From a virus (taxonomy: Duplodnaviria; Heunggongvirae; Uroviricota; Caudoviricetes): DNA of 20,040 nucleotides. Location: the IMG/VR virus record IMGVR_UViG_2667527582_000006; one strand, written 5' to 3'. Under the pieces are notes generated by a model. The model saw only the letters and a program-made list of their open reading frames with translations. It ran no database searches and was not told where the DNA came from. The translations under genes and the position numbers were made by a program. Below are positions 2 through 17,162 of the stretch, in pieces; position 1 is the stretch's first letter, and every line of letters starts with the position of its first letter.

Positions 2-1297
2 TTAATTTTTCATTGCTTCGTTATGGGGCATGGTTGGGGCAAACTCGCTTAACTGTGTATTTAACAAAGCTACCTGTGCATTATTGTTTTCAGACATCCA
101 TTTTCCGTATACCTGAAATACCATTTGCGCATCTGCATGGCCCATCTGGTTTGCTATAAATGCCGGGTTAGCACCAGCTGTCAGCGACCAGCAGGCATAA
201 GTATGTCTCGACTGATATGATTTTCGATGGCGGAGTCCGGCACGTTTTATCGCTGCGTCCCACATCTGCCTTATTGAGTCAACGGTAAAATGGTCACCAT
301 AATTTTTTACTCTCGCTGACACTTCAGGTTGAAAAACAAAGGTGCATTTATGTTTTTCTGTTCTGCCATACTCTCTGAGGTGAACATCAATGATATGCTC
401 TTTGCTCAGTCTCGTTAATGTCATCTGACTCCGGAGAGCGTCGATTGCTGGCTTAATAAGATGAATGACCCGATTGGTTCCCGCCTGTGTTTTTGGTACC
501 GTGAAACGGTCTTTTGCTAAATTTCTCCTGATCATCATTGTTCCATTTTTCAGATCTATGTCCTCCCATCCAAGTGCACACAGCTCACCAGGGCGAACGC
601 CAGTATAAACAGAAACACACCATAAATTTTTGGCTTGCTGATTTCTGCACGCATCGATAAGACGGATGAATTCCTCCCGCGAAAGAGGATCCGGAATGGT
701 TCTTGATTCCTTTAATGGCGAGATCCCCTTAAACGGGTTATCTGCCAGGTAACCGTTATCAACACCAAACTGGAACACGGCGTTAAGATTTGTCATGTAA
801 TTATTTACAGTTACAGCCGATCTCCCTGGTTGTGTAACAATATAGTTACTTTTGGGGATCTGGTATCCAGTCAGTAGCTCTTTACGAACCTCCAGTAATT
901 TTTCTTTATTAATCGATGAGGCAAGATTTTTTTCACCGATTATGCTCAGGATATTTTTGATGACGGCACGGTATGTGTTGAGTGATGTTTTTGCGACTTC
1001 AGTTTCTTTCAGTGCCAGAAATTTTTCAGCCAGTTCTTTTATGGTTAAATCTTGTCGGGTCTCACCAAATTTTTCCAGATTGCGTGAGGAGGGAAACTGT
1101 TTTGCATAGTCGAAAACACCAGTTTTTATTGCGTAACAAACAGAGGCGCGTAGCTCACCTGCAACGCGCCTGTTTTTTGCTGTGTCAGGAACCCCCAGGT
1201 TTTCCCTGACTCTTACGCCTTTATAAACAAACCAGATACGTAATTTCCCTCCATGGTTTTCCACGCCTGTCGGATATTTCATTTCAATTTCTCTCAT
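2..1297 (-). CDS. Phage tyrosine integrase (site-specific recombinase)
   Basis: 431-aa ORF; N-terminal arm-type DNA-binding region (GKLRIWFVYKGVRVRENLG); C-terminal catalytic region with R...HxxR...Y pattern (RHTYACW, YGKW). Alternative start at 1282 (MKYPTG). Confidence 0.85.
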   Translation of the reverse strand: MREIEMKYPTGVENHGGKLRIWFVYKGVRVRENLGVPDTAKNRRVAGELRASVCYAIKTGVFDYAKQFPSSRNLEKFGETRQDLTIKELAEKFLALKETEVAKTSLNTYRAVIKNILSIIGEKNLASSINKEKLLEVRKELLTGYQIPKSNYIVTQPGRSAVTVNNYMTNLNAVFQFGVDNGYLADNPFKGISPLKESRTIPDPLSREEFIRLIDACRNQQAKNLWCVSVYTGVRPGELCALGWEDIDLKNGTMMIRRNLAKDRFTVPKTQAGTNRVIHLIKPAIDALRSQMTLTRLSKEHIIDVHLREYGRTEKHKCTFVFQPEVSARVKNYGDHFTVDSIRQMWDAAIKRAGLRHRKSYQSRHTYACWSLTAGANPAFIANQMGHADAQMVFQVYGKWMSENNNAQVALLNTQLSEFAPTMPHNEAMKN

Positions 1298-1316
1298 TAG
1301 TTAGTGTGGCTTTTAG

Positions 1317-1568
1317 TCAAGTAAGATGACGTCTTGGTCTTGCTGATGCCTGGCGCTCAATCCAGCGATCAATTTCTTCCAGGTTGTAAAAGCATGGACT
1401 GTTATCCCATGGCATACCGTCATGAGCGACATGCTTATATTCCCTTCCTTCCATAAACGATTTTTCCCGGGCCTTTTTTAACGTACCTTTTTTTATTCCT
1501 TTCAGCGCAATTAACTGCTCTTCGGATACCCATTTGCCGGGAGAGACAATCATGATTACTTCGCTCAT
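1317..1568 (-). CDS. Excisionase-like small DNA-binding protein
   Basis: 83-aa basic ORF directly upstream of int on the same strand, 19-nt gap; position and size typical of Xis. Confidence 0.5.
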   Translation of the reverse strand: MSEVIMIVSPGKWVSEEQLIALKGIKKGTLKKAREKSFMEGREYKHVAHDGMPWDNSPCFYNLEEIDRWIERQASARPRRHLT

Positions 1569-1640
1569 CGATTTCTTTATCTCTTACATCAGACGAGCGC
1601 CGGTTGCAGAATACCAGTCACAACCGGCGACAGTTGAACA

Positions 1641-4112
1641 TTAAGAATCAGCCTGACTCGGGATCAGTTTTTGCCAGATAACTGAAACGTATTTTGCCTG
1701 GTAACGGGCGTCATCAAGTGCATTATGGCGCTCACCTTCGAATGGAATAGCCGTTCTGGCATCGAAGTCTATGGCTTTCCCCAGCTCAACGATTGTGCGT
1801 ACATCGCGATCGTTGTAGTAACGCCACGGGCAGGGGATCCCCTGCCGTTCGTATGAACGGCGCAAAATCGTGTTGTCGAAGTTGGCTCCATTTCCCCAGA
1901 CCTGAACAAAAAATTCACCGGAGTTTTCGTCGATAAATTCCCACAATTGTAACAGTGCATCATCTAACGGGATTTCATCGGTCATAATGGCAGATTGCGC
2001 TTCGCGTGATTGCTTAAGCCACCATTTAATGGTGTCCCGATCAATGACTCCGCCAGCAGTTTCCAGATCGATAGTCTTACTAAATTCCGGTCCCATATCT
2101 CCGGTTTGCGGATCGAAAAATATTGCACCTATTGAGATGATCGGGGCATCAGGATTTTTTCCCATGGTTTCAAGGTCGATCATTAGATGGTCACACGTCC
2201 TGCTGGTGGATGTGATTTCTTGATGACCGTTCACCTTAATTGAGTGATCTGCCGTCTCGCCAGTTTCATTATCGCTATCGTGATGCTGATTGCCGCCAGT
2301 GTTCTCCTTGTGTGGATGTTCAGCGCCTTCCATTTCCTCCGGATCATCTTCCTGAACTTCAATCTGATACTCTTCATCGAATGTTTCCTGGTATGTTGCG
2401 TCGCCCATTACCGCGCCACAATCAGGGCAGTTGCCGCCGCCGGTCTGACCGCAGGCGGTGCAGACTTTTTCCACTTCCTGTTGCGCCACTGATTCAGGCT
2501 GTTTCGTTTCTGGCTCGTTTTGTAACGCATTTGGGCTGTTTTGTTCCGCTTTTTGGTAGTTCCGTTCCGATTCATGCTGGTTCTGGTTCACAGAATCGCG
2601 GGTCTGGATCCCCTTAACCCATTTCGGATCATTCGGGTCACTAATCCCTTCAACAAATTCACCACGTGATGCAGCAAGCAACTTATCGGCGTCAGGCTGG
2701 ATGATATTGGCTGCCTGCATAATTTTGTTTACTTCGTCAGCGGTAACTTTTATCGGCTCTGGTTGTTCTGAATCTTCAGCGGTATCTACATTTTGCGGTA
2801 AGCCCGTGTATGTGCCATTTTTTCGGGCAAAATATTCTTCTTTTGTGATTTCAGTGGCGCCAGCAGCCAGTGCCTTATCCAGACCAGAAAGTTTGTTTGC
2901 GCGACCGTATTTTTCTCCGTCCTTATCTGCGAAGAGGAAATAGAACGGCCCCTCACGCTCTACAGATGGTTCAGCTTCCGGCGCGGTTTCATTTTTTGGG
3001 ATATCAGATACCTCAGTTTCCACTGCATCAGTTTGTGTTTCTGATGACTGGAGAACATCAACAGTGCCCAGGTCTGTTTCTTCATTCTCAAACACGCCCT
3101 TTGTCGTCAGGTATTCGCAGATATATTTGTTCAGTGCTACGGGATCTTTGTGAATGTCGATCGGACGCTCACGGACAAGGCCAAAAATAGTTTGGCGGTC
3201 GTAGCGAAGGGCATCAGGCTGTTTGCGCATTGATGCCGAGATACGCTTCCAGTCTTCGCGGTCGTTGTCGATAACTTCATTTTTTGCCCAGCGATGGATG
3301 CTGCCGTCAATGTTTCCGGCATCCACATCACCAGGCCAGAGAGCGTAGGCCAGTTCGTCATCCAGTGTTTTCCATGTCTGCTTGTATTCGCGATGAATGG
3401 CAGCAATGACCGGGCTGATTTTTCCTGTTGAATTTTCAGTGTACTGTTGATTGGCTCTGGCGCGGGCGAGATCAACAACAGACGTGTATTTTCCGGTTTC
3501 CTTGCGTTCACCTTCGCGACGTTTTTTCCAGATGCGCATCTCTGCCTGAATTTCGGGCCATTTAGCACCAGGAATACATTTATGCTTAACCCACCCAATG
3601 GCGTGCAACTTAAGCTCCGGATACATGGCGTTAACTTCTGGCATTTTCATCAACGCTTCAACGATATGTCCGTCGAATGTTGCCATGTCTTCCTGCAACA
3701 ATTCCTGTGCGCTAATAACCATATCAACGGTGATGTTTTCACATGTGTCGAACTTAACCATGACAGCGTTCTGTACTTCAGGGGCCAGCTTGTCAAAAGT
3801 GACGTTCATCGGATCGGATTCAGTCTCAACCGGGACAAAAGAAGCAGACTCCTCATCCCAGCGGTTTTCCTGCATATATTCAGCATCCCATGAATCGAGG
3901 GCAGGGCGGGGTATGCCAGGTTTATCCTCGCAGACAATAAATTTATAAGCGCAGTCCTGAGCAGCCGGATAATGTTCCAGGAATTGCCAGTGAAATTTTG
4001 CTCGAGCACGGCGTTCGTCGCCAGCTTCAATGGCTGTGGCTACAGCCACAGCGCCTTCTTCCCTTGTTGCCAGTTCGTCAGGAATAGCGGCGCAAATAAA
4101 GACTTTACTCAT
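1641..4112 (-). CDS. Exodeoxyribonuclease VIII-like protein: N-terminal region, RecE-like middle segment, C-terminal DnaQ-like (DEDDh) 3'-5' exonuclease domain
   Basis: Central DADKLLAASRGEFVEGISDPNDPKWVKGIQTRD and CTACGQTGGGNCPDCGAVMGDATYQETF segments match remembered RecE. C-terminus has MIDLETMG (DxE), WGNGANFD and HNALDDARYQ (H-x4-D) motifs. Start taken at M13 (4112), which has a GAGG 8 nt upstream; ORF is open to 4148. Confidence 0.8.
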   Translation of the reverse strand: MSKVFICAAIPDELATREEGAVAVATAIEAGDERRARAKFHWQFLEHYPAAQDCAYKFIVCEDKPGIPRPALDSWDAEYMQENRWDEESASFVPVETESDPMNVTFDKLAPEVQNAVMVKFDTCENITVDMVISAQELLQEDMATFDGHIVEALMKMPEVNAMYPELKLHAIGWVKHKCIPGAKWPEIQAEMRIWKKRREGERKETGKYTSVVDLARARANQQYTENSTGKISPVIAAIHREYKQTWKTLDDELAYALWPGDVDAGNIDGSIHRWAKNEVIDNDREDWKRISASMRKQPDALRYDRQTIFGLVRERPIDIHKDPVALNKYICEYLTTKGVFENEETDLGTVDVLQSSETQTDAVETEVSDIPKNETAPEAEPSVEREGPFYFLFADKDGEKYGRANKLSGLDKALAAGATEITKEEYFARKNGTYTGLPQNVDTAEDSEQPEPIKVTADEVNKIMQAANIIQPDADKLLAASRGEFVEGISDPNDPKWVKGIQTRDSVNQNQHESERNYQKAEQNSPNALQNEPETKQPESVAQQEVEKVCTACGQTGGGNCPDCGAVMGDATYQETFDEEYQIEVQEDDPEEMEGAEHPHKENTGGNQHHDSDNETGETADHSIKVNGHQEITSTSRTCDHLMIDLETMGKNPDAPIISIGAIFFDPQTGDMGPEFSKTIDLETAGGVIDRDTIKWWLKQSREAQSAIMTDEIPLDDALLQLWEFIDENSGEFFVQVWGNGANFDNTILRRSYERQGIPCPWRYYNDRDVRTIVELGKAIDFDARTAIPFEGERHNALDDARYQAKYVSVIWQKLIPSQADS

Positions 4113-4204
4113 TTGTTTTAACCTCATGACAGATTTAAGGATGAACAAATCCCTGCCATTGCTGGCATATAAGAATGAAACCGGATATTTATTACGGAAC
4201 TGTT

Positions 4205-4396
4205 TTAAAGACCTGCCGGGATTTCGATATTATCCTGGTGAATAACTTTATCGACCGGGTAACAGTTACCGGGAATTTTCTGTTCGGTTGCTGCAGTCAT
4301 ACACTCCTGCATTGTCCTGTGAACACTGACTGCAATATCAACTGGCTCTCCGGAAACAAGAAAAACTGTCAGAACAAGCACAAATGCTGAATTCAT
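4205..4396 (-). CDS. ydfD: Small exported/membrane protein, YdfD-like (63 aa)
   Basis: MNSAFVLVLTVFLVSGEPV signal-like N-terminus; ATG overlaps the dicB stop (ATGA); size and position downstream of dicB match remembered ydfD. Confidence 0.55.
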   Translation of the reverse strand: MNSAFVLVLTVFLVSGEPVDIAVSVHRTMQECMTAATEQKIPGNCYPVDKVIHQDNIEIPAGL

Positions 4397-4581
4397 TGTG
4401 CACATCCTTTTGGCATCAGACGTAAACGAGCCAGCATTGAAACAATGCATATTTTATTTAATAGCTCCCGTTCTTGTTTTCTCTTGTTAATGGCATCTTC
4501 AGTAAATACTGGGTTACTGATAGTGACACCAATTTCAAAACAACCTTCAGACGTATTAACGTTTGGTAATAACGTTTTCAT
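4393..4581 (-). CDS. dicB: Cell-division inhibitor DicB (62 aa)
   Basis: MKTLLPNVNTSEGCFEIGVTISNPVFTEDAINKRKQERELLNKICIVSMLARLRLMPKGCAQ; GAGGA 8 nt upstream of ATG; immediately downstream of DicF. Confidence 0.7.
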   Translation of the reverse strand: MKTLLPNVNTSEGCFEIGVTISNPVFTEDAINKRKQERELLNKICIVSMLARLRLMPKGCAQ

Positions 4582-4750
4582 TATCGCGTCCTCAACAATG
4601 AATTTTGTGATGCAGTGCCTGGTGCCTCCAGGTGACGTTAACCAGTTAACAATTAACGCCGGATACAGAGAATCCACCCATAACACTGTTTTTGGTTTTA
4701 ACTGTTCCGCGTGCGCTCAGCCGCATTCACCACATCACAAAATTCACTTT

Positions 4751-4808
4751 AAAAAGGGCGGCAGAGCAGTCACGGAGTAAAACTGATACCGCCAAACGTC
4801 ACCAGAAA
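4751..4808 (-). ncRNA. dicF: DicF small regulatory RNA
   Basis: Minus-strand sequence UUUCUGGUGACGUUUGGCGGUAUCAGUUUUACUCCGUGACUGCUCUGCCGCCCUUUUU matches remembered DicF, with a 3' U-tract; sits between ydfC and dicB as in Qin. Confidence 0.7.
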
Positions 4809-5148
4809 ATTGATAACAGAGGGCGTTGCAGCGGGGTTGTCACTTAAGCGTATGGTCAACCTGACAACCCGGTGTCCTCAACGGGGAAGAAATAACCCCG
4901 CCATACTTACCGCCGCACCATTTCGCGGGTTGCCACAACCGGAAGCGCACGGTCGACGAAAATTTAACGACAGGCTATCTATGAACCAGCTACCTCGCCG
5001 TGCGCTTTCGCGTTATGGTCTGACTTTTCAGGGAAATATCCTTTCAGTAAACTGTCAGTGCCGGATGCTCACCCGTGTCCGGCGCACGCACTCCACCTCA
5101 CCCGTGGAGAACTCCTTAATTACCAACCTTAGCTTCGTTGGTTAGCTA

Positions 5149-5367
5149 TTAACGCGGGTATGTAATCATTCTGGCAATGCTTAATGCCGCTGCTTTTTCC
5201 AGATTGGTGATATCCTGCTCCAGAGCGGACAGATTTTCAGCCTGCTTAGCCCTGGCTTCATTGGCCCATTTCAGATCCTGCGCTGCATTAATTTTCTGGC
5301 GCATCCACTCATAAAGTTCATCATCGGTATAGTCTGGCGCGATGATGACGGGTTCTCGTTTCTGCAT
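5149..5367 (-). CDS. ydfC: Small prophage protein, YdfC-like (72 aa)
   Basis: ORF with GAGGAA RBS; size and operon position (ydfA-ydfB-ydfC-dicF-dicB) match. Confidence 0.55.
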   Translation of the reverse strand: MQKREPVIIAPDYTDDELYEWMRQKINAAQDLKWANEARAKQAENLSALEQDITNLEKAAALSIARMITYPR

Positions 5368-5396
5368 ACTGATTCCTCGCGGTGCTGTTTCGCTTA

Positions 5397-5525
5397 TCAG
5401 CCGTTAGATTTTGCCGAACTGGAAAGCGCCTGTTTAAATTCGTTGAAGCTGTGAGCTTCTTCGCCTTCGGCAAGGCCTTCGAAGTATTCTTCGTAAGCCT
5501 TTTCCATGATTGTGTCAAAATCCAT
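5397..5525 (-). CDS. ydfB: Small acidic protein, YdfB-like (42 aa), not in the ORF track
   Basis: Manual translation MDFDTIMEKAYEEYFEGLAEGEEAHSFNEFKQALSSSAKSNG; GGTGAG RBS 7 nt upstream; start 1 nt after the ydfA stop. Confidence 0.5.
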   Translation of the reverse strand: MDFDTIMEKAYEEYFEGLAEGEEAHSFNEFKQALSSSAKSNG

Positions 5526-5526
5526 A

Positions 5527-5682
5527 TCACTCACCTGAGTTTCTTTCCAGCCAGCGACGGGCACCATTTTCGGTTTTAAACGTTTTGCTTTTGGTATACG
5601 TCATTGCGGTGAAGGTGCCGTCCTGGTTTGGAAACACGCCGTACACCAGAGATTCGTTGTTGCCAAGATCGATAGTATCCAT
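5527..5682 (-). CDS. ydfA: Small protein, YdfA-like (51 aa)
   Basis: Internal start MDTIDLGNNESLVYGVFPNQDG... with GAGG 6 nt upstream; first gene of the leftward operon; size matches. Confidence 0.55.
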   Translation of the reverse strand: MDTIDLGNNESLVYGVFPNQDGTFTAMTYTKSKTFKTENGARRWLERNSGE

Positions 5683-5889
5683 GCTGACCTCATTTCCCCT
5701 TAACGCCGGGGTAGCGGAACAAAAACCTGCTGCATAGTTATTAAAGTTGAACCCTGCCGTCATGTTCTTACGCCTCGGGCTGGCTACTTAACCCCTGACC
5801 ACTGCCTGGTAACTCGAAGTATTGCCCTGCATTCTGTAGGATGGGGTGAGGGAATGAATGAAGTTTAGAAAGACGAACTTTCCAGGTCA

Positions 5890-5909
5890 ATGTTTTTTTA
5901 TCAAAACAT
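5890..5909. promoter_or_regulatory. Putative left operator (OL-like): palindrome ATGTTTT-N6-AAAACAT
   Basis: Perfect 7-bp inverted arms, 6-bp spacer, upstream of the leftward ydfA operon; same motif recurs at the cI/cro intergenic region. Confidence 0.4.
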
Positions 5910-5974
5910 TTTAAGCAGGCAGCTGTTAAGCCATCACCACGATGGCATACAGTTAATCAAATAGATGAGGTTGG

Positions 5975-6613
5975 TTAAATATCTTGTTGAATTTTAAAGC
6001 ATACGCCCAATATGCAAGATAGATCATCCAGCATAATTGAAGGGTAGCGAGGATTCGTGGGGACTAAAAGAATATCCGGCCCTTCTATCTCCAGTTTACG
6101 AATGACAGGTGTTGTGGTCCCTTTGGGTAAGGCAAGGACAATATTTCCTGGTTGTACGGTTCGATCGGGATCAACAAAAACTGTTGAACCATTTGGGATG
6201 GAAACTCCCCCACCAGATGTTGACATACTGTCACTCTCTAGAACAACTGCAAAGGTATTGACCGGGATTTCTCCGACAAGCTGCACACAAGAGGTTATTG
6301 AGGAATTTTTCATATAATCACTCCAGCTTGCTGCCTGCTGAAGTGATAGTAGCGGAACCGTTTTTATCGGCGGTAAAGATAGATCAAGCGAATCACCTGT
6401 ATTTAACTCTCCTCCATTAAGAAGCCAATTTTCGTTTACTTTCAATATTTTTGCCAGTGAACTTATGTAACGCGAGGACGGCGCTCCTCCACCGTTCATC
6501 CATTGACTTACGGAGCCTTTTGATGCGCCAGTGCCATTGACAAGGTCTTTGCCTTTCAGGTTTAGCGCATGCATACGTTGGGTTATGCGTTCAGATATAG
6601 TTTGCTTGCTCAT
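5975..6613 (-). CDS. CI-like prophage repressor (N-terminal HTH, C-terminal S24/LexA-like autopeptidase)
   Basis: 212 aa; HTH region KDLVNGTGASKGSVSQWMNG; S24-like region with Ser in VVLESDSMS and Lys in PVIRKLE; divergent from cro-like gene. Confidence 0.85.
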   Translation of the reverse strand: MSKQTISERITQRMHALNLKGKDLVNGTGASKGSVSQWMNGGGAPSSRYISSLAKILKVNENWLLNGGELNTGDSLDLSLPPIKTVPLLSLQQAASWSDYMKNSSITSCVQLVGEIPVNTFAVVLESDSMSTSGGGVSIPNGSTVFVDPDRTVQPGNIVLALPKGTTTPVIRKLEIEGPDILLVPTNPRYPSIMLDDLSCILGVCFKIQQDI

Positions 6614-6676
6614 GTTTTGATTTTAAAACACAGATGGTTTTGTTTCTTGACTTTCTTTGGTTTTGATTATTAAACT
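6612..6676. promoter_or_regulatory. Putative OR-like operator/promoter region between cI and cro
   Basis: ATGTTTTgattttAAAACAC at 6612-6631 overlaps the cI start codon; two further GGTTTTG(A/T)TT half-site-like repeats at about 6637 and 6659. Confidence 0.45.
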
Positions 6677-6704
6677 TTTGACGTTCAGTTTTATGGAGCG
6701 ACTC

Positions 6705-6935
6705 ATGAAAAAATCAGAAGTATTAGGCTATTTTGGCGGAGTTGTTAAAACAGCCGCAGCTCTAGGAACGTCAAAAACCACAGTCAGCATGTGGGGGGAA
6801 GAGGTTCCGTGGAAATGGGCGTTGCTAATTCAGGCAGTCACTGCCGGGGCGCTCAAATATGAGTTACACATACCGACGGTTGTCATTCCCGGTTCTGATC
6901 ATAATCCGCCTTCTAACCAAGGGGGGGATTCATGA
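6705..6935 (+). CDS. Cro-like HTH regulator (76 aa)
   Basis: MKKSEVLGYFGGVVKTAAALGTSKTTVSMWGEEVP... resembles P22-type Cro; GGAG 6 nt upstream; divergent from the repressor. Confidence 0.7.
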   Translation: MKKSEVLGYFGGVVKTAAALGTSKTTVSMWGEEVPWKWALLIQAVTAGALKYELHIPTVVIPGSDHNPPSNQGGDS

Positions 6936-7357
6936 AAATCAAGCATGAACACATCCGCATGGCGATGAATGCCTGGGCGCATCCGGACGGCGAAAAAGTA
7001 CCGGCTGCGAAAATTACCAAAGCGTATTTCGAGCTGGGAATGACGTTCCCGGAACTGTATGACGACAGCCATCCGGAAGCCCTGGCTCGCAATACCCAGA
7101 AAATTTTCCGCTGGGTAGAGAAAGACACCCCTGATGCAGTTGAAAAAATTCAGGCGTTGTTACCAGCGATCGAAAAGGCAATGCCACCTTTGCTGGTGGC
7201 CAGAATGCGCAGCCACAGTTCAGCTTATTTTCGGGAGCTGGTGGAGACGCGGGAGCGACTGGTGAGAGACGCTGATGATTTTGTCGCAGTGGCAATCGCC
7301 GGTTTCAATCAGATGAACCGTGGTGGCCCGGCAGGAAATGCTGTGGCAGTACATTGA
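6932..7357 (+). CDS. CII-like / YdaT-like regulatory protein (141 aa)
   Basis: ATG overlaps the cro stop (ATGA); G-rich SD; position after cro matches CII/YdaT of Rac-type immunity regions. Confidence 0.5.
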   Translation: MKIKHEHIRMAMNAWAHPDGEKVPAAKITKAYFELGMTFPELYDDSHPEALARNTQKIFRWVEKDTPDAVEKIQALLPAIEKAMPPLLVARMRSHSSAYFRELVETRERLVRDADDFVAVAIAGFNQMNRGGPAGNAVAVH

Positions 7358-7428
7358 CTGACAATAGCCATATCGAATCGCTTCCGGCAACTCGTGAGTA
7401 AAAAGATTCGGTATCAGAAGAGGTGAGT

Positions 7429-8499
7429 ATGGCTAACGCCTGGCTCAGATTATGGCATGACATGCCAAATGACCCTAAGTGGCGAACAATTGCCAGGGTG
7501 TCAGGGCAGCCAATTGCAACAGTGATGGCAGTGTATATCCACCTCCTGGTGAGCGCGTCACGAAATGTCACGCGAGGTCACATTGATGTCACGACAGAAG
7601 ATTTGGCAAGTGCGCTCGACGTGACAGAAGAGGTAATTGATTCAATTTTGCAGACGATGCAGGGGCGGGTACTTGATGGTGATTTAATCACTGGATGGGA
7701 AAAACGCCAGGTGCTGAAAGAGGACAACGGCAATATTTCGCAAACCGCAAAATCTCCGGCAGAGCGCAAGAGGGCGCAGCGAGAGAGGGAAAGAAAGCGG
7801 GAACAAAATGGCGATTGTCACGGCGCGTCACGAAATGTCACGCACATGTCACGACGAGTCACGACAGATAAAGATACAGATAAAGATACAGATCAAGAAG
7901 ATCAAAACACTATGGTCCATGGCGTAAAAAACGCCACGAACCAGGCAGGGGATGTTCAGACCGTCAATCCTGGTCAGCCAGCAGGCACGACACCGGAAGC
8001 CGATTCAGCGTATGCGCTGAAAGCCGATTCGGGCGCTGTGCAGCAGGTGATGACCCCAAGGCCGGAGCAATCACACCAACTGCAGCAGCCTGAAGCCGAT
8101 TCCGCCATTCAGCGGGAAGCCGATCGGGTAGTCCCGGAAAACACCGGGCTGTCTGTGGGACGAGTGGATTATCCGGATGTGTTCGAACAGGTCTGGCGGG
8201 AGTACCCGTTGCGTGCCGGAGCAAACCCGAAGAAATCCGCTTTCAGTGCCTGGAAGGCCAGATTACGCGAGGGGGTGCCACCAGAGGCCATGCTGGATGG
8301 CGTGAGGCGTTACGCAAGATACTTGGCGGCTACCGGGAAAACGGGAACGGAATTTGTTCAGCGAGCGACGACGTTTTTTGGACCGGACCGGAATTTTGAG
8401 AACCCCTGGTTGCTCCCGGTAAGCGGCACGAACAACCAGCGTTGTGTGAATCATATTTCTGAACCGGATACCGAAATTCCACCGGGCTTCAGGGGGTAA
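7429..8499 (+). CDS. Replication initiator, lambda O-like (replisome organiser N-terminus), containing the origin iterons
   Basis: N-terminus MANAWLRLWHDMPNDPKWRTIARVSGQPIATVMAVYIHLL typical of the phage replisome-organiser N-terminal domain; GAGGTGAG SD; internal iteron arrays. Confidence 0.75.
   Translation: MANAWLRLWHDMPNDPKWRTIARVSGQPIATVMAVYIHLLVSASRNVTRGHIDVTTEDLASALDVTEEVIDSILQTMQGRVLDGDLITGWEKRQVLKEDNGNISQTAKSPAERKRAQRERERKREQNGDCHGASRNVTHMSRRVTTDKDTDKDTDQEDQNTMVHGVKNATNQAGDVQTVNPGQPAGTTPEADSAYALKADSGAVQQVMTPRPEQSHQLQQPEADSAIQREADRVVPENTGLSVGRVDYPDVFEQVWREYPLRAGANPKKSAFSAWKARLREGVPPEAMLDGVRRYARYLAATGKTGTEFVQRATTFFGPDRNFENPWLLPVSGTNNQRCVNHISEPDTEIPPGFRG
7556..7593 (+). repeat. Iteron cluster 1: four GTCAC(G/A) repeats at 10-11 bp spacing
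   Basis: Copies at about 7557, 7567, 7577 and 7588; the 18-mer CGTCACGAAATGTCACGC recurs identically at 7826-7843. Confidence 0.6.
7817..7888 (+). repeat. Iteron cluster 2 (five GTCACG repeats at 10-11 bp spacing) followed by GATAAAGATACA x2 tandem repeat; candidate ori
   Basis: Copies at about 7817, 7827, 7837, 7848 and 7858, then GATAAAGATACAGATAAAGATACA and an A-rich stretch, all inside the O-like ORF. Confidence 0.6.
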
Positions 8500-8539
8500 G
8501 TGTTGATTTCTGGTCATGAGGTAATTTTCAGGAGGGCTT

Positions 8540-8962
8540 GTGGCAAAAGTTTTTACACAAGAAGAGCGAGAAAAAATTAAAGGGCAGGTTGTTGAACTCG
8601 TACGCCAGAGTGGGCGTGAGACGTTACGGCAACTGGAAGTCAAGACAGGTGCGACAAGATATCTGATGAGCGTTCTCGCAAGAGAGCTGGTTGCCAGCGG
8701 CGATGTATACAACTCCGGCTACGGGTTATTCCCCTCTGAACAGGCGCGTAAGGACTGGCAAAACGCCCGCAAAAAACTCTCGAGGGCAAAGGTGAAGAAA
8801 CCTGCTGTGGTTGATCCGGACCTTATCTGGTCATCACCTGACGGAGAAATACGTCGCTACGACAGTCGCCTAAACATAATCTGTCGCGAGTGCCGGAAGA
8901 GTGAAGCTATGCAGCGTGTACTGGCTTTCTATCAGGGTAATTTTCAGGAGGCGGTACTGTGA
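8540..8962 (+). CDS. Hypothetical protein (140 aa), replication-module position
   Basis: GTG start with AGGAGG 4 nt upstream; basic, possibly DNA-binding; no recognised motif. Confidence 0.5.
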   Translation: MAKVFTQEEREKIKGQVVELVRQSGRETLRQLEVKTGATRYLMSVLARELVASGDVYNSGYGLFPSEQARKDWQNARKKLSRAKVKKPAVVDPDLIWSSPDGEIRRYDSRLNIICRECRKSEAMQRVLAFYQGNFQEAVL

Positions 8963-9019
8963 GTGAAATTAGCTATCAGGCTTCAATTACCGCTGGCATT
9001 CGCATCAAAGGAGAGGAGC

Positions 9020-9376
9020 ATGGAAATAAAACCAGAGGATGAGTTAAGCAATATCGTTTTATTTCCGGTAAAAGAGGATGACCCTCGTAATCAGGTTAAT
9101 TTTCTTTATGAGCCATCGGAAAGACCATATTGTCATCACGCCTCTGTCCGGGTTGACGAAAAAGAGCGTCAGGTCCGCTGTAAAATCTGCGGTGCAGTTG
9201 TGGAGCCATTTGACTGGATGCTCTCTGTGGCGAAAAGAGAAACCAGACTGGCAGATGATGTAAGGCTCTTGCGTCAGGAGGAGCGGGAAAGGCGAAAAAA
9301 TATAGAAAAGCTAATTCAGATTGAGCGTAACGCGAAAGCGCGGATACGCAGGGCGACAAAATCCAGAACTGAATAA
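9020..9376 (+). CDS. Hypothetical protein (118 aa) with Cys/His cluster and basic coiled-coil-like C-terminus
   Basis: ATG at 9020 with AGGAGAGGAG SD; CHHASVRVDEKERQVRCKICG possible zinc-binding; the track ORF begins at an upstream GTG (8963). Confidence 0.5.
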   Translation: MEIKPEDELSNIVLFPVKEDDPRNQVNFLYEPSERPYCHHASVRVDEKERQVRCKICGAVVEPFDWMLSVAKRETRLADDVRLLRQEERERRKNIEKLIQIERNAKARIRRATKSRTE

Positions 9377-9469
9377 TTAAATTTAGCTCTGTTAAAAATT
9401 TAATCCTTAACCGGAGGGATTTCTGCACCCTCAGAACATCAGGAGGCCGCCCGAAAGGGCGGTAGTTAA

Positions 9470-9652
9470 ATGCGAAAGTTTAAAATAATTATTGAAACGG
9501 GAATAGCCGGTGGAGATTTCGAGGATGAATTCGAAGTGGATGATGATGCGACGCCTGATGAAATACATGACGAAGCAAAAGATATTTTCTTTAACTACTG
9601 CAATTACTCATATCACGAAATAAAAGACGAAGAGGAAGAACAAAATGGCTGA
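9470..9652 (+). CDS. Small highly acidic protein (60 aa)
   Basis: MRKFKIIIETGIAGGDFEDEFEVDDDATPDEIHDE...; SD AGGAGG separated from the ATG by a GNRA-loop hairpin. Confidence 0.45.
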   Translation: MRKFKIIIETGIAGGDFEDEFEVDDDATPDEIHDEAKDIFFNYCNYSYHEIKDEEEEQNG

Positions 9653-9821
9653 TTTTGGTTCAACTAAATACAACGTCAGTTTTGAAGAATGGCATGAACT
9701 GTTAATGGACTATGCAGAGTTACGTGGTGGCAGTGCTGCTGATGCTGAAGCATGGCGTGATGATTATGAAGCAGGAAAAACTCCGGTCGAAGCATATTGT
9801 GATGAGTGGGGCGATGAATGA
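9645..9821 (+). CDS. Small acidic protein (58 aa), not in the ORF track
   Basis: Manual translation MADFGSTKYNVSFEEWHELLMDYAELRGGSAADAEAWRDDYEAGKTPVEAYCDEWGDE; GAGGAAGAA SD; start overlaps the upstream stop and its stop overlaps the next ATG (ATGA). Confidence 0.4.
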   Translation: MADFGSTKYNVSFEEWHELLMDYAELRGGSAADAEAWRDDYEAGKTPVEAYCDEWGDE

Positions 9822-10134
9822 GCGAGGTTAATTATCAGGAAGGGCATGAAACGGCGGGGCAAGCAAAAACAGTGGCATGGCGATATCGCTACGTGAAAAA
9901 AAAGGCGTTACGGACTTTCAGGGGAAGTAGTGGTCTGGTGACTGGAAATATGTACCGAAAAAAGAGGATTGTAACGACAGGCCGAACTATGAAATTCAGG
10001 CCTTATTCACTGCCCCGCCAGTCCCGGTTACATCAGAAGAACTGGTTAAAGCTGTGCACTTTTATGAACAACTAAAACGCGAAAATCCACCAGCATCCGG
10101 AAACCTGATTACAGATTCCCAGATAAGGCAATGA
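9818..10134 (+). pseudogene. Hypothetical gene with apparent frame disruption: ATG frame 9818-10075 and a more protein-like -1 frame from 9931 to 10134
   Basis: Annotated frame after the A8 tract (9896-9903) is K/R-rich and junk-like; the -1 frame encodes ...DWKYVPKKEDCNDRPNYEIQALFTAPPVPVTSEELVKAVHFYEQLKRENPPASGNLITDSQIRQ but has no start codon. Confidence 0.3.
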
Positions 10135-10304
10135 GCTACCTGGCGCAGAACGGGCTGATAAGTATGGGGAATGTTTTACGATGAATATTTAGACTAAAGA
10201 GTTTGTAACGCTATGTAAGTGATTTTTTCTGGTTTAGATATTTATATGTCCGGCCAAATTGAGGTGTGTTTAAATGTAATTGCACATTGATTGTAGGAGG
10301 AATA

Positions 10305-10484
10305 ATGAAAAACGCATTGCAGTTTTTGTTTGTTGCGTTCTGGTTGTTCGTATCATGTATGCCCATCATCTTCACAGCAAGGTATATGGAAAAAGTTGAT
10401 GTTTTGATATTAATATTTGGATATATAAATGCCCTTTTTTTAGGGGTGTTCATGGCGGTCATGTGCATTGAATACTGGCGGTAA
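10305..10484 (+). CDS. Small hydrophobic membrane protein (59 aa, two predicted TM segments) in an AT-rich moron
   Basis: MKNALQFLFVAFWLFVSCMPIIF...LILIFGYINALFLGVFMAVMCIEYWR; strong AGGAGG SD; AT-rich surroundings. Confidence 0.5.
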   Translation: MKNALQFLFVAFWLFVSCMPIIFTARYMEKVDVLILIFGYINALFLGVFMAVMCIEYWR

Positions 10485-10629
10485 ATACAGCGAACGCCAT
10501 TGGTTTAGTTGGATATTTACTGTGCCGGACAAAAACGGTTTGCGGGGAAATCTTAGTTAAGTAGAATGACTGCGGGTGCTTGAGGCTATCTGTCTCAGGC
10601 ATGAACACCAAAAGGCAGATAGAGAAAAG

Positions 10630-10693
10630 CCCCAGTTAACATTACGCGTCCTGCAAGACGCTTAACATTAATCTGAGGCCATATCTATGCGAC
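10630..10693 (-). ncRNA. Putative Sok-like antisense RNA of the hok locus (extent approximate)
   Basis: Minus-strand promoter-like TTGACC (10729-10724), 18-nt spacer, TAATCT (10705-10700); the transcript would be antisense to the leader-ORF start region, as in hok/sok. Confidence 0.3.
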
Positions 10694-10746
10694 ACATAGA
10701 GATTAGCCTCTTACGGACCGAAAGGTCAAGGAGAAGCAGGCTATGA
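10687..10746 (+). CDS. Putative mok-like leader ORF (19 codons), translationally coupled to hok
   Basis: ATG at 10687; stop TGA overlaps the hok ATG (cuAUGA). Confidence 0.3.
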   Translation: MRHIEISLLRTERSRRSRL

Positions 10747-10898
10747 AGCAGCAAAAGGCGATGTTAATCGCCCTGATCGTCATCTGTTTAACCGTCATAG
10801 TGACGGCACTGGTAACGAGGAAAGACCTCTGCGAGGTACGAATCCGAACCGGCCAGACGGAGGTCGCTGTCTTCACAGCTTACGAACCTGAGGAGTAA
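10743..10898 (+). CDS. hokD: Hok-family type I toxin (HokD/RelF-like, 51 aa)
   Basis: MKQQKAMLIALIVICLTVIVTALVTRKDLCEVRIRTGQTEVAVFTAYEPEE: single TM helix and conserved Hok periplasmic tail with Cys. Confidence 0.85.
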   Translation: MKQQKAMLIALIVICLTVIVTALVTRKDLCEVRIRTGQTEVAVFTAYEPEE

Positions 10899-10966
10899 GA
10901 GACCTGGCGGGGGAGAAATCCCTCGCCACCTCTGATGTGTCAGGCATCCTCAACGCACCCGCACGT

Positions 10967-10993
10967 AACCCGCTTCGGCGGGTTTTGTTTTTT
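10967..10993 (+). terminator. Rho-independent terminator of the hok transcript
   Basis: CCCGC-TTCG-GCGGG hairpin followed by TTTTGTTTTTT. Confidence 0.7.
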
Positions 10994-11065
10994 CCTGGCA
11001 TTCTGGTTTACAATTCGCACGCCAGCCTGAACAACTGGCACCTGCTGCGCCAGCAGAGACAACCG

Positions 11066-11344
11066 ATGGCGCACGATACCAAATTACACAATTCTAATGA
11101 TTCTGCCGTCTTTGCCAGTAGGTGCGGACGGCGTTTTCACGCATTCAAATCAGACTGGTTCCAGCATCCTCCATGCACTGAAGAGCAGGCGGAATGGATA
11201 ATTCAGTGTTACCGCAGGCGCGGATACGAGGTTAAGAAAGCTCTTAGCCTCGACTACCGTCACTGGATAATCTCAGTCAGACTCCCTTACTCCGAACGCC
11301 CACCGCGTTCATCCCGCACATACCAGCAACGGATCTGGAGGTAA
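11066..11344 (+). CDS. Hypothetical small protein (rem-like position between hok and ydfU)
   Basis: ORF in frame with track ORF 10937..11344; the first ATG downstream of the hok terminator is at 11066; stop abuts the ydfU-like start. Confidence 0.45.
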   Translation: MAHDTKLHNSNDSAVFASRCGRRFHAFKSDWFQHPPCTEEQAEWIIQCYRRRGYEVKKALSLDYRHWIISVRLPYSERPPRSSRTYQQRIWR

Positions 11345-11345
11345 C

Positions 11346-12395
11346 GTGCGGGTATTACTTCGACCTGTTCTGGTACCGGAACTCGGGGTGGTGATCGTTA
11401 AGCCGGGCCGTGAATCCATGCCGGTATTCCACAATACCCGGGTACTGGTGGAGCCGGAACCGAAAAGCATGCGTAATCTGCCGTCCGGGGTCGTTCCTGC
11501 CGTTCGCCAGCCGCTGGTGGAAGACAAAACATTGCTGCCGTTTTTCAGTAACGCACGGGTGATTCGTGCTGCTGGTGGTGCTGGTGCATTGTCTGACTGG
11601 CTGTTGCGCCATATTAAATCCTGCCAGTGGCCACACGGCGATTATCACCACAGTGAAACCGTCATTCACCGTTATGGTACCGGCGCAATGGTGTTGTGCT
11701 GGCACTGCGACAACCAGCTGCGTGACCAGACATCCGAATCACTCGAGCAACTTGCTCATCAAAACCTGTCAGCATGGATGATTGACGTCATCGGTCACGC
11801 AATAAGCGGTACGCAGGAGCGTGAATTATCTCTGGCTGAATTATCCTGGTGGGCGGTCCGAAATCAGGTGGCGGATGCGCTACCTGAAGCGGTATTACGT
11901 CGCTCGCTGGGATTACCAGCGGAAAAAATCCGCTCAATGTACCGCGAAAGCGACATCGTACCGGGAGAGCAGACCGCCACCAGCATATTGAAACAGCGCA
12001 CAAAAAATCTTGCACTGTTGCCTCACGCCCACCAGGAACAACACCCACTACAGGAAAGGACGGTGGTAAGCATCACCGTTGATCCTGAGTCTCCGGAATC
12101 TTTCATGAAGCTACCTAAACGTCGCCGCTGGGTTAAGGAGAAATACACTCGCTGGGTGAAGACACAGCCGTGTGCTTGCTGCGGTATGCCAGCCGACGAT
12201 CCGCATCATCTGATTGGTCACGGGCAGGGCGGAATGGGAACCAAAGCACATGATCTTTTTGTGTTGCCTTTATGCAGAAAGCATCACGACGAACTGCATA
12301 CGGATACCGTGGCATTTGAAGAGAAGTATGGCTCCCAACTGGAGCTGATTTTTCGATTTATCGATCACGCGCTGGCAATTGGTGTGCTGGCCTAA
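11346..12395 (+). CDS. ydfU: DUF968-family prophage protein (YdfU-like, 349 aa) with C-terminal Cys/His-rich HNH-like segment
   Basis: GTG start with GGAGG SD; C-terminal CACCGMPADDPHHLIGHGQGGMGTKAHDLFVLPLCRKHHDELH; size and position match remembered ydfU. Confidence 0.7.
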   Translation: MRVLLRPVLVPELGVVIVKPGRESMPVFHNTRVLVEPEPKSMRNLPSGVVPAVRQPLVEDKTLLPFFSNARVIRAAGGAGALSDWLLRHIKSCQWPHGDYHHSETVIHRYGTGAMVLCWHCDNQLRDQTSESLEQLAHQNLSAWMIDVIGHAISGTQERELSLAELSWWAVRNQVADALPEAVLRRSLGLPAEKIRSMYRESDIVPGEQTATSILKQRTKNLALLPHAHQEQHPLQERTVVSITVDPESPESFMKLPKRRRWVKEKYTRWVKTQPCACCGMPADDPHHLIGHGQGGMGTKAHDLFVLPLCRKHHDELHTDTVAFEEKYGSQLELIFRFIDHALAIGVLA

Positions 12396-12412
12396 TTTTG
12401 TGGAGTAAGTTG

Positions 12413-12459
12413 ATGCGTGATATTCAGATGGTTCTTGAGCGTTGGGGAGCGTGGGCGGC
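12413..12459 (+). CDS. Antitermination protein Q-like, N-terminal fragment only (truncated by the assembly gap)
   Basis: MRDIQMVLERWGAWA... with GGAG SD; reading frame runs into the N tract. Confidence 0.5.
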
Positions 12460-12469
12460 NNNNNNNNNN
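12460..12469. other. Assembly gap (10 N)
   Basis: Run of n characters in the sequence. Confidence 0.97.
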
Positions 12470-12665: not shown

Positions 12666-13928
12666 ATGGCGCTCACTGACGCTAAAATCCGTGCCGCTAA
12701 ACCGGATGAAAAACCTTATAAACTTGCCGACAGCGGCAACATGTTCTTGCTCGTTCACCCTAACGGCTCTCGCTACTGGCGGCTCCGCTATCGGTTTCTG
12801 GGCAAAGAGAAAACGCTCGCTCTGGGGGTCTATCCTGAAGTCTCGTTATCAGAAGCAAGGGAAAAACGCGATACGGCGAGAAAGCTGATAGCTGAGGGAA
12901 CTGACCCATGCGAACAGAAAAGGATCAAAAAGTCGGTACCCGAAACAGCTCAGACATTTGAAGGCATCGCAAGACAGTGGCATAAGAGCAACAAAAAATG
13001 GTCAGCCTCACACAATGAGAGGATACTGAAAAGCCTCGAAACTCATGTTTTCCCCTTTATTGGTTCACGTGACATTACCACCCTCAGGACTCCCGATTTA
13101 CTTGTTCCCGTTAAAGCAGCCGAAGCAAAGGAGATATATGAAATCGCAGCGCGCCTTCAGCAGCGTATCACTGCAATCATGCGCTATGCTGCCCAGTCAG
13201 GCATTATCACCTATAACCCTGCCTTGGATATGGCTGGCGCGTTAACCACAGTGAAACGCCAGCACCGCCCTGCCCTCGCCTTAAATCGCATTTCAGAGCT
13301 TCTTGAACGACTGGATGCCTACAGAGGACAACCTCTCACCCGGCAGGCAACTAAACTCACCCTGCTTATCTTCATCCGTTCCAGCGAACTACGCTTTGCC
13401 AGGTGGTCTGAGATCGACTTCAAGAAAGCCATGTGGACCATTCCTCCTGAGCGGAAACCTATTGAAGGGGTCAAGTATTCCCATCGTGGCTCAAAAATGC
13501 GAACAGAGCATCTTGTGCCACTATCTACTCAGGCGGTGAATATACTGAAGCAGATCCACACTATCAGCGGAGAACATGAACTGATTTTCACCGGCGATCA
13601 CAATCCATGGAAACCCATGAGTGAGAACACTGTAAATAACGCACTGCGTCTGATGGGCTATGATACAAAGGTCGATGTCTGTGGTCACGGCTTCCGGGCA
13701 ATGGCCTGTAGTTCGTTGATTGAGTCAGGTCTTTGGTCCAGAGATGCGGTAGAACGGCAGATGAGCCATATGGAACGCAATTCGGTGAGGGCGGCGTATA
13801 TTCATAAAGCGGAACATCTGGATGAGCGCAAGCTGATGTTGCAGTGGTGGGCTGATTTTCTGGATGCCAATCGGGAAAGGGGAATTACGCCGTTTGACTA
13901 TGCGAAGATCAACCGGGGTAATATGTAG
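12666..13928 (+). CDS. P4-type (CP4-like) tyrosine integrase
   Basis: 420 aa; N-terminal MALTDAKIRAAKPDEKPYKLADSGNMFLLVHPNGSRYWRLRYRF arm-binding signature; C-terminal HGFRAM...RAAY catalytic motifs; AGGAGA SD. Confidence 0.85.
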   Translation: MALTDAKIRAAKPDEKPYKLADSGNMFLLVHPNGSRYWRLRYRFLGKEKTLALGVYPEVSLSEAREKRDTARKLIAEGTDPCEQKRIKKSVPETAQTFEGIARQWHKSNKKWSASHNERILKSLETHVFPFIGSRDITTLRTPDLLVPVKAAEAKEIYEIAARLQQRITAIMRYAAQSGIITYNPALDMAGALTTVKRQHRPALALNRISELLERLDAYRGQPLTRQATKLTLLIFIRSSELRFARWSEIDFKKAMWTIPPERKPIEGVKYSHRGSKMRTEHLVPLSTQAVNILKQIHTISGEHELIFTGDHNPWKPMSENTVNNALRLMGYDTKVDVCGHGFRAMACSSLIESGLWSRDAVERQMSHMERNSVRAAYIHKAEHLDERKLMLQWWADFLDANRERGITPFDYAKINRGNM

Positions 13929-14458: not shown

Positions 14459-15775
14459 TTAGCCTGCTGTTCGCTCCAGACCCTGGTTCTTACCAGCCAG
14501 TATTTCGGCTTTTTTCATAGTTTCGACCAACTGTTCCGAGACAGCACGGATGACATTCATGCAGACAGAGTTGCCAAATTGCTTGTAGATCTGGCCCTGT
14601 GAAACAGCATCGACGATGTAGTCGTCAGGGAATCCCTGTAGACGTGCACATTCGCGCGGAGTTAGCTTGCGTGGGTTCCTACCCAAATGTGACTGGTCAA
14701 TCAGGATTTCGGAGCCGTCCTTGTAATAACGTGCACTGATGGTATTAGTGTATTCGCTGTCCTTGTTGAAAAGAGAATAGCCGAAACCGTTACCTTTCTT
14801 TTCGTGTTCCAGTTTCCGTTTCTGGTGGCCTATCCACAGTCTATCCGAGATGGTATATCTGTCTTGTGATAGAGGCAGACGATCGAGGTCTTCCAGAATG
14901 TCACCAACACGGGTCGGAGTCATAGGAGGTACCGGCCATCTGAATACACTGTCGAAATCCACGCCCCTATAATAGTCACGGTCAAAACCAACGATGAAAA
15001 TACGTTCACGGTTCTGGGGGGCACCGAAGTCACCTGCACGCAGTACACGGTAATCAACCCAGTAATTGAGTTTTTCGGACAGAGCATTGCGGGCATCCTC
15101 ACTAATCGGGATATCGTCCGGAACGGAATGGGTTCCATTGCCCCGCAGGATATCGAGAATGGTTTTCAGGGTACGACCCTTATCATGTCCCTGCAGTTGC
15201 TTGACATTTTCCAACATGAATGCCTTTGGACGCTTGGCTGTCATTATCCGCTGAATTTCGAAGAACATGGTTCCACGGGTATCGCTGAAACCTTTTTTCA
15301 AACCGGCCTGTGAAAAAGCCTGGCATGGAAATCCGCCAAGCAGTACATCGTGATCAGGAATGTCGGATGCCGGAATTCTAGTGATGTCACCTTGGGGCAT
15401 TTCGCCGAAATTCGTTAGATAGGTCTTCTGGGAGAACTTGTCCCATTCGGATGAGAATACACAGTGCCCTCCCTGCTGCTGATAAGGAAGACGAATACCT
15501 CCGATACCAGCAAACAGATCGATGAAGGTGAAATTGCATTCATTTTCAGGCTTCTGGCGGAAAGGTGCGTTTTCCAGATATTCAGTCATCTTCTTTTCCA
15601 CATCGAGAATGGCCTGCCATTTGGCGGAAGACGGTTCATGTTCCTCTTCTTCCCATCCTCGGACTGTACGTTCTCCGGTGGCACCGAGTCCGAGAAGATT
15701 GGCAAATTCGGTGCGACCTATGCCTAATTTTTTTCTCATATTTTTGATATATTGGAATTTATTCTTACTGTCCAT
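14459..15775 (-). CDS. DNA (cytosine-5)-methyltransferase, Dcm/EcoRII/SsoII family, with N-terminal HTH regulatory extension
   Basis: Motif I FIDLFAGIGG, motif IV GGFPCQAFS, ENV, QNRERIFIVG, TISARYYKDGSEILID, TPRECARLQGFPDDY; N-terminal GIGRTEFANLLGLGATGERTVRGWEEEE HTH-like segment. Confidence 0.9.
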   Translation of the reverse strand: MDSKNKFQYIKNMRKKLGIGRTEFANLLGLGATGERTVRGWEEEEHEPSSAKWQAILDVEKKMTEYLENAPFRQKPENECNFTFIDLFAGIGGIRLPYQQQGGHCVFSSEWDKFSQKTYLTNFGEMPQGDITRIPASDIPDHDVLLGGFPCQAFSQAGLKKGFSDTRGTMFFEIQRIMTAKRPKAFMLENVKQLQGHDKGRTLKTILDILRGNGTHSVPDDIPISEDARNALSEKLNYWVDYRVLRAGDFGAPQNRERIFIVGFDRDYYRGVDFDSVFRWPVPPMTPTRVGDILEDLDRLPLSQDRYTISDRLWIGHQKRKLEHEKKGNGFGYSLFNKDSEYTNTISARYYKDGSEILIDQSHLGRNPRKLTPRECARLQGFPDDYIVDAVSQGQIYKQFGNSVCMNVIRAVSEQLVETMKKAEILAGKNQGLERTAG

Positions 15776-15887: not shown

Positions 15888-17162
15888 TCAGACTGTAAAA
15901 ATTTCGCGGGTCAGTTCTACCAGCTTTTCTCCTGTTGAATACAGCCGAAGTAGTTCTAGGGGATCCTGGTAATGGCAATGAATCGGCGGATATTCGGACA
16001 GACAGTCAGCTTCTGTAACCAGAACCTTTCCCCTTTCCGCAACATGGACAGCCCTGAGTGGCTTTTCTGTTCCAGGAAAAATGAAATGGTTTGTGATGTG
16101 GGTACCGACCGGCACTAGGTAAGAAAGCGCCTTCTGGTAGAAAAACTGTTTTACCAGATCCGGCCAACCAGGAGCACTATCCGGTGTCTTCGCATCATAG
16201 TATTTGGCATCTATGATCGCGACGTGCGTTTTTTCTGCATTGTGGAGAACCGTATCCGTTCTCTGGCTCTTGTTGGCAACGGGAACAAACCTGTCACTGC
16301 CGGCCCGATACACGGGAATAGGCAATTTATTGTTAACTCGGTATTTACCCACCAAGCATTCATCCAGCATGGCTTCCCACAGACTGTGAAACTTCCTGAC
16401 ACCGATAAGAACCCCGCCATTCCGCATTCCTCTCCCTGTTTCAAGATACATGATCAGTCTCCGCAAAAGGAAAATATCCCTTTCGGAATAGCTGAACTGC
16501 AGTTCTCTTCTTAGGTGTACAACCCATGAGAAAACATTTCCCTCAGGACGCGGAACATTCTGCAGTCGTTCAGGAGTGCCCTGACTGCCTGTCCAGAGCA
16601 TTCCGTATACCGGATAGAGCTCCCTCATTACAGAGGCATGAATCTTTGCTGTCTCGCTATCGGTGAGGTAGCGCGAACGTGTGGTTACAGGATCGATATA
16701 TACAGGCCCAGATGGGCTAGTATAGGCAGTCCCTCGGGCAATTGTCTCCGGCCATACAACTTTTCCGGAGTTGGTTGTATCGACTCTAATCCGGCGGACA
16801 TAGAGACCATTCGTCTGATAGTCGTCAATCAGTGCAGTTGCCAACGACAGGGATTCACCACCGATAAGTCCGGTTCCTGCATCCCCATCAAAAACACCGG
16901 TGTCTCTATCTCGGTAGAATTTCAGGAGTGAGCGGAGCAGATAATGTGCTGAAAGAGCCTGCGATTCACGAGAAGAACTGTTATTTCGTGGCAGAAATAC
17001 AGCCAGACCTCCACTGAAAGACATGACTCCACAGAAATGGATTTTCTGCATGTCGGGGGCCAGCAGCCCCCTGTTTCTCAGCTCATCGAGCACGGTCGCA
17101 GGAATACTGCGATCGGTGACAGGTGTCCTGTCTGAAAGATACAGAATATCAGCTGGCAACAT
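15888..17162 (-). CDS. McrC-like PD-(D/E)xK nuclease subunit
   Basis: 424 aa; C-terminal HVAIIDAKYY matching the (D/E)xK catalytic core; start overlaps the upstream AAA+ gene by 14 nt. Confidence 0.7.
   Translation of the reverse strand: MLPADILYLSDRTPVTDRSIPATVLDELRNRGLLAPDMQKIHFCGVMSFSGGLAVFLPRNNSSSRESQALSAHYLLRSLLKFYRDRDTGVFDGDAGTGLIGGESLSLATALIDDYQTNGLYVRRIRVDTTNSGKVVWPETIARGTAYTSPSGPVYIDPVTTRSRYLTDSETAKIHASVMRELYPVYGMLWTGSQGTPERLQNVPRPEGNVFSWVVHLRRELQFSYSERDIFLLRRLIMYLETGRGMRNGGVLIGVRKFHSLWEAMLDECLVGKYRVNNKLPIPVYRAGSDRFVPVANKSQRTDTVLHNAEKTHVAIIDAKYYDAKTPDSAPGWPDLVKQFFYQKALSYLVPVGTHITNHFIFPGTEKPLRAVHVAERGKVLVTEADCLSEYPPIHCHYQDPLELLRLYSTGEKLVELTREIFTV

Follow-up and report, generated by a model that had tools for sequence, protein, structure and literature searches.

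Positions 9818-10184 of the 20,040-nt stretch of DNA analysed here (the window) are very probably a pseudogene, the multi-lesion remnant of an approximately 171-aa accessory gene of lambdoid phages that belongs to the family phrog_660. Judged from the sequence, ordinary gene decay has left at least four independent lesions in this gene. The initial annotation had placed a pseudogene with one or more indels first among its readings of the site; this was correct, but the damage exceeds a single indel: the gene has gained 2 nt and a nonsense codon and has suffered two deletions. These lesions, the homology of each segment, the spread of the allele in the population and the polymorphism of the affected tract were all observed directly. 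The pseudogene status as such is already known from RefSeq annotation, where, in identical DNA, PGAP assigns exactly 9818-10134 to a pseudogene with the label 'hypothetical protein; frameshifted; internal stop' (e.g. MS6198_RS31675 and ACI3ME_RS04805). The PGAP calls thus name two of the lesions, but omit both deletions and the third-frame C-terminal remnant that extends to 10184, because the yardstick used was a short, 104-aa form of the protein. The importance of our analysis is accordingly small: a pseudogene call that was already in place is upheld, and an apparent case of programmed recoding can be set aside.

The ATG at 9818 overlaps the stop codon of the upstream gene (ATGA) and opens an 85-aa ORF on the plus strand (9818-10075, with TAA at 10073-10075). 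Within this ORF, positions 9896-9903 form an A8 run, one of two homopolymer runs of at least 8 nt in the window, which is followed by G9904. Counted from the ATG, the codons read GTG (9893), AAA (9896), AAA (9899) and AAG (9902), and this places the heptamer A_AAA_AAG (9898-9904) in the phase of the dnaX signal. The 85-aa ORF is made up of 29 genuine residues followed by 56 residues from out-of-frame sequence, and the latter contain 23% K+R and 0% D+E. In the -1 frame, a stretch of 67 codons is open from 9931 to a TGA at 10132-10134; its composition is balanced (12% K+R, 15% D+E), and its earliest possible start is a GTG at 10054. Slippage by -1 at the heptamer leads into GVTDFQGK and then to a TAG at 9928-9930, and yields a peptide of only 37 aa. 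The phasing of the A8 run, the K/R-rich tail, the balanced but start-less -1 frame and the TAG eight codons beyond a -1 slip had all been described in the initial annotation, and each of these descriptions holds at the coordinates above.

When the two frames were conceptually joined, single-frame homologues were found in phages. Specifically, single ORFs at the same genomic position encode 104 aa in E. coli WP4-S17-ESBL-08 (WP_001529162.1), 119 aa in phage vB_EcoS-689R5 and 171 aa in E. coli FORC_043 (WP_028985605.1). In all three loci the gene is preceded by those for a DUF7167 protein and a 58-aa protein, with overlapping stop and start codons, and in the WP4-S17-ESBL-08 and FORC_043 loci a hok gene follows downstream. 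When 9818-10186 was aligned pairwise to the FORC_043 gene for the 171-aa form, four differences were seen that disrupt or shorten the coding sequence: 2 additional nucleotides at 9896, the TAG at 9928, the loss of 90 nt at approximately 10079/10080 and the loss of 61 nt at approximately 10099/10100.

The individual parts of the remnant are readily recognized from such alignments. The N-terminal 26 codons (9818-9895, plus strand) correspond, nucleotide by nucleotide, to the beginning of the intact homologues and have kept the original frame. At 9896-9903 (plus strand), alignment to intact homologues placed a frameshifting insertion of 2 nt at 9896, such that the A8 run corresponds to A6 in the relatives; A6 was present in five of the five other copies first aligned, three of which are intact. 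Positions 9904-9927 (plus strand) encode GVTDFQGK, eight ancestral codons whose homologous counterparts in the intact proteins are codons 29-36 and which now lie in the -1 frame. The TAG at 9928-9930 (plus strand) is a nonsense codon in the ancestral frame and represents the second lesion, i.e. the 'internal stop' of PGAP; intact homologues have a sense codon here (CTG, CAG, CCG or ATG), and rare A8 alleles have TGG. The start-less stretch of 67 codons at 9931-10134 (plus strand) is the middle of the old protein in its ancestral (-1) frame and matches phrog_660 at profile positions 73-124 (E=1.2e-16); it closes with nine out-of-frame residues before its TGA.

Two deletions affect the 3′ part of the gene. 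Alignments to the 171-aa gene of FORC_043 place the junction of an in-frame 90-nt deletion at 10079..10080 (plus strand); in the full-length copy, this segment is flanked by the imperfect direct repeats AAAGCGTGAGAATCCGCCAG and AAAGCCGACAATCCACCAG, which encode K-R-E-N-P-P and K-A-D-N-P-P. The junction of the second deletion, of 61 nt relative to the same gene, lies at 10099..10100 (plus strand) and marks the point at which the C-terminal codons have moved to the third frame. One relative (L005) retains the 61-nt segment, which is flanked there by CGGCAACTAGATTA and CGGAAACCTGATTA. The last 27 ancestral codons (KPDYRFPDKAMSYLAQNGLISMGNVLR) and their TGA at 10182-10184 occupy 10101-10184 (plus strand) in the third frame and match profile positions 167-193 of the 193 positions of phrog_660 (E=6.4e-07); the stop codon at 10182-10184 is common to the window copy and the 171-aa gene. 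The end originally set at 10134 is therefore right for the -1 frame, but the remnant itself runs on to 10184.

Collectively, the ancestral protein is scattered over all three frames, with residues 1-28 in the frame of the ATG, the middle in the -1 frame and the last 27 residues in the third. These three segments match successive parts of the phrog_660 profile: residues 2-31 of the 85-aa ORF align with profile positions 34-63 (E=0.006), ahead of the two segments described above, and a conceptually repaired translation matches the profile with E=8.5e-28. It is thus the -1 frame, and not the tail of the annotated frame, that has homologues; the 56-residue tail gave no match in PHROG or Pfam. The full-length phrog_660 gene exemplified by WP_028985605.1 also has the same neighbours as the window copy, with genes for DUF7167 and phrog_519-like proteins upstream and hok downstream. 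Unlike this 171-aa member, the window copy is broken by the 2-nt insertion, the TAG and the 90- and 61-nt deletions, and lacks an uninterrupted ORF that spans the profile. By this comparison, it is a remnant and is predicted not to be a working member of phrog_660.

The match between phrog_660 and the 171-aa form extends over the whole length (E=6.5e-72), and a scan of IMG/VR returned 427 relatives, with uninterrupted 171-aa ORFs in 68 of the 80 best. The run in these 68 ORFs was A6 followed by G in 64 cases and an in-frame AAA-AAA-AGT in three; in the remaining one, the run was not scored. The 104-aa form spans only profile positions 34-124. WP_001529162.1 (1501-1815 of its locus), the yardstick of PGAP, carries the same 90-nt and 61-nt deletions as the window copy and ends in the same way with nine out-of-frame residues. 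By its alignment, this 'intact' RefSeq protein has itself arisen from the 171-aa family by deletion. The 5′ part of the 104-aa allele resembles alleles of the intact lineage, and its 3′ part is of the deleted window type, which suggests that the WP4-S17-ESBL-08 allele is a recombinant mosaic. Since the annotation treats the 104-aa allele as a normal protein in spite of both deletions, these alone may not be enough to abolish function. With regard to what this function is, Pfam gave just a sub-threshold match to AphA_like (E = 0.026; 14.7 bits versus a cut-off of 27), NCBIfam gave no match, and a sequence search of the PDB returned designed proteins only, at E > 1e-3.

The heptamer raised the question of programmed -1 frameshifting. 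In E. coli dnaX, the signal consists of A_AAA_AAG, an upstream Shine-Dalgarno-like element and a downstream hairpin. The window has the identical heptamer, in phase with the ATG at 9818, and ribosomes that slip on it and go on in the -1 frame could in principle produce a functional fusion protein. Given suitable stimulators, few -1 motifs work as efficiently in E. coli as A_AA.A_AA.G (PMC4066793). Here, however, the resemblance to dnaX ends with the heptamer and its phase. The predicted folding energy of the downstream 71 nt (9905-9975) is -11.2 kcal/mol as compared with a mean of -11.55 for shuffled sequences (z = 0.15), which gives no indication of a stimulatory stem-loop, and no Shine-Dalgarno-like element is visible in the 18 nt upstream (GGCGATATCGCTACGTGA, 9880-9897). 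Heptamers without stimulators raised frameshifting just 2.1- to 10-fold above a background of 0.055% in a reporter series (PMC4066793). Moreover, the -1 frame is not open but closed by the TAG after eight codons, the intact homologues have A6 and a single ORF without the heptamer, and the tract length varies between A6, A7 and A8 on alleles that carry the TAG. We consider programmed frameshifting exceedingly improbable; the doubt already expressed about it in the initial annotation was justified by the TAG at 9928. The dnaX-like phasing is instead a by-product of the lesion, because the addition of AA to GTG AAA AAA GGC can only give an in-phase A_AAA_AAG. Scans for recoding signals should hence expect dnaX-phased look-alikes that arise from 2-nt expansions of AAA-AAA-G in decaying prophage genes.

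To follow the site in the population, we used exact-match queries of 88-90 nt on a collection of 5,426 complete E. coli genomes; with queries this short (under 100 nt), only exact matches can fall in the 99% band. The A8+TAG allele of the window (90-mer) was found in 340 of these genomes and in 44 IMG/VR contigs, A7+TAG (89-mer) in 62 genomes and 13 contigs, and A6+TAG (88-mer) in 424 genomes and 36 contigs. A8+TGG was seen in three IMG/VR contigs, and its 90-mer had no exact match among the 5,426 genomes. Carriers of A8 include CFT073, EC958, JJ1886, H10407 and O104:H4 2009EL-2071, which were sequenced independently; all five give an ungapped 90-nt match, with one mismatch, to the TGG 90-mer. 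Over 901 nt around the site, at least 30 complete E. coli genomes are 100% identical. The A8 pattern gave no match in the species-representative genomes of GTDB.

This distribution bears on the proposal, also made in the initial annotation, that the A8 run is an error of sequencing or assembly in a genome whose frame is intact and whose true run is A6 (or A9). Errors are common in homopolymer runs, and some of the A7 alleles could be miscalls. An identical allele in hundreds of independently sequenced complete genomes contradicts such an error in the window, and a repaired run would remove neither the TAG nor the deletions; this explanation is vanishingly unlikely. The same spread might be taken to favour the 85-aa ORF (9818-10075) as a new functional protein with a basic tail born of the frameshift, given that it is uninterrupted, has a coupled start and is identical in hundreds of genomes. 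However, the identity among genomes reflects the recent common descent of the prophage, without demonstrated constraint. The tail, in addition to its lack of homologues in PHROGs and Pfam, has the composition of out-of-frame sequence, and the A6 and A7 sister alleles do not encode this ORF. A new protein thus seems very improbable, if slightly less so than an error in the run.

The polymorphism of the run in otherwise near-identical alleles (A6, A7, A8) is also what a phase-variable contingency gene, with an on/off state set by the number of A residues, would display. Against this, the IMG/VR contigs of the haplotype carry the TAG in all 36 A6, all 13 A7 and 44 of 47 A8 alleles, the exceptions being the three contigs with A8+TGG. 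No tract length in the TAG lineage gives a full-length product, and intact alleles are fixed at A6. Phase variation therefore has next to no likelihood.

The alleles fall into the haplotypes CC-A6-TAG, AC-A7-TAG, AC-A8-TAG and, rarely, AC-A8-TGG, with A8 limited to one haplotype. An intact A6+TGG progenitor was not encountered, neither among the IMG/VR contigs (36 of 36 A6 alleles have TAG) nor as an exact match in the 5,426 E. coli genomes. From the alleles at hand, every ordering of the haplotypes needs either a recurrent change of the A run or recombination. Recurrent length change is to be expected of a homopolymer, and the occurrence of A6, A7 and A8 on a TAG background fits neutral drift of the run. 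Side by side on TAG, these alleles would document, on a small scale and in nature, how a homopolymer drifts once selection is relaxed. We also compared pN/pS, with the A run of the TAG lineage reset to restore the frame. The ratio was 0.84 in the TAG lineage (12 distinct alleles) and 0.30 for the intact 171-aa form (35 distinct alleles); of the 14 variable codons in the TAG lineage, 11 were amino-acid-changing, and the contrast rests on just these 14. Its direction fits a loss of function, in a small sample.

The A8 run and its heptamer also occur with TGG in place of TAG, in IMGVR_UViG_2872180393_000005, IMGVR_UViG_2896595138_000001 and IMGVR_UViG_2869924733_000007. In the first two of these contigs the -1 frame continues through 143 codons up to the ancestral stop, and neither deletion is present. 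The two additional A residues are thus their sole lesion, and slippage by -1 would be enough to restore the full protein. Indels in A-rich runs can be sites of adventitious or 'savior' frameshifting, which has been reviewed (PMC5009743), and an example is the AAA-AAA of attB1 in pDEST17 (PMC1851650). The A8+TGG relatives resemble these cases in that an indel in a run of lysine codons makes a shifty site at which a -1 slip compensates. Slippage, be it of the ribosome or of RNA polymerase on A8, would give the full-length protein with one extra lysine. We therefore considered whether the change from A6 to A8 was at first tolerated, with the in-phase A_AAA_AAG allowing -1 slippage to rebuild the protein; the A8+TGG alleles would then be living examples, and the window allele a later, dead descendant. 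If true, the two A8+TGG contigs would hold a phage gene that is expressed only via adventitious frameshifting. This scenario is unlikely, albeit less so than any of the other alternatives considered here, and the A8+TGG alleles may simply be freshly frameshifted. Unlike in the 'savior' cases, the TAG rules out compensation in the window, and the A8+TGG contigs are the only place where self-correcting frameshifting could operate.

Our preferred explanation thus remains the decay of a prophage gene. Slipped-strand expansion from A6 to A8 in the in-phase AAA-AAA run would have inserted the 2 nt, and a point mutation would have created the TAG eight codons beyond the run. The 90-nt in-frame deletion could have occurred through the imperfect direct repeats at its borders, and the 61-nt deletion, again through imperfect repeats, would have put the C-terminus out of frame. 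What we infer is the mutational mechanisms, namely replication slippage and repeat-mediated deletion, as well as any order in which the lesions arose and the gene's lack of function. Ribosomes coupled to the upstream gene would then make the 85-aa product with its junk tail and, upon an occasional -1 slip, the 37-aa peptide, neither of which would restore the protein.

The genomic setting is that of a lambdoid prophage. The neighbourhood corresponds to an early-right operon, with the gene located between the replication genes and hok/sok. Upstream are a replication initiator (7423-8499), a Ren-like or DUF977 protein and several small proteins without an assigned function, including the DUF7167 protein; downstream of the pseudogene follow sok/hokD and then a DUF968 gene (to 12395). 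The prophage in the window is itself truncated, and after the DUF968 gene gives way to a second integrase and a restriction-modification island. This part comprises a tyrosine integrase (12666-13928, plus strand), a C5 DNA methylase (14459-15775, minus strand), a LlaJI-type restriction endonuclease (15888-17162, minus strand), an AAA_5 protein (17149-19089, minus strand) and an unassigned ORF (19117-20040, minus strand). The LlaJI/McrBC-like restriction island occupies the place of the lambdoid late genes (RusA, Q, lysis). Likeness to other prophages ends at approximately 12100-12460; identity to the nearest ones is approximately 96-98% over 1-12100 and then ends. Searched as one block against complete E. 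coli genomes, the whole 20-kb window reached a best coverage of 60% and, as no genome exceeds this value, constitutes a mosaic that is absent from that collection. There are no tRNA genes in the window, in contrast to the related MS6198 prophage, which has them.

Several small genes and RNAs lie near or upstream of the remnant. A hydrophobic 59-aa ORF (MKNALQFLFVAFWLFVSCMPIIF...; 10305-10484, plus strand) has an AGGAGG 5 nt before its ATG; it had no PHROG match, and the RefSeq records examined do not annotate it. A small membrane protein may have been overlooked here. Further downstream, the sok antitoxin RNA (10574-10745, plus strand; Rfam, 106.7 bits) overlaps the start of hokD (10743-10898, plus strand). 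In the left part of the window, the DicF sRNA (4756-4807, minus strand; Rfam, 76.7 bits) adjoins dicB.
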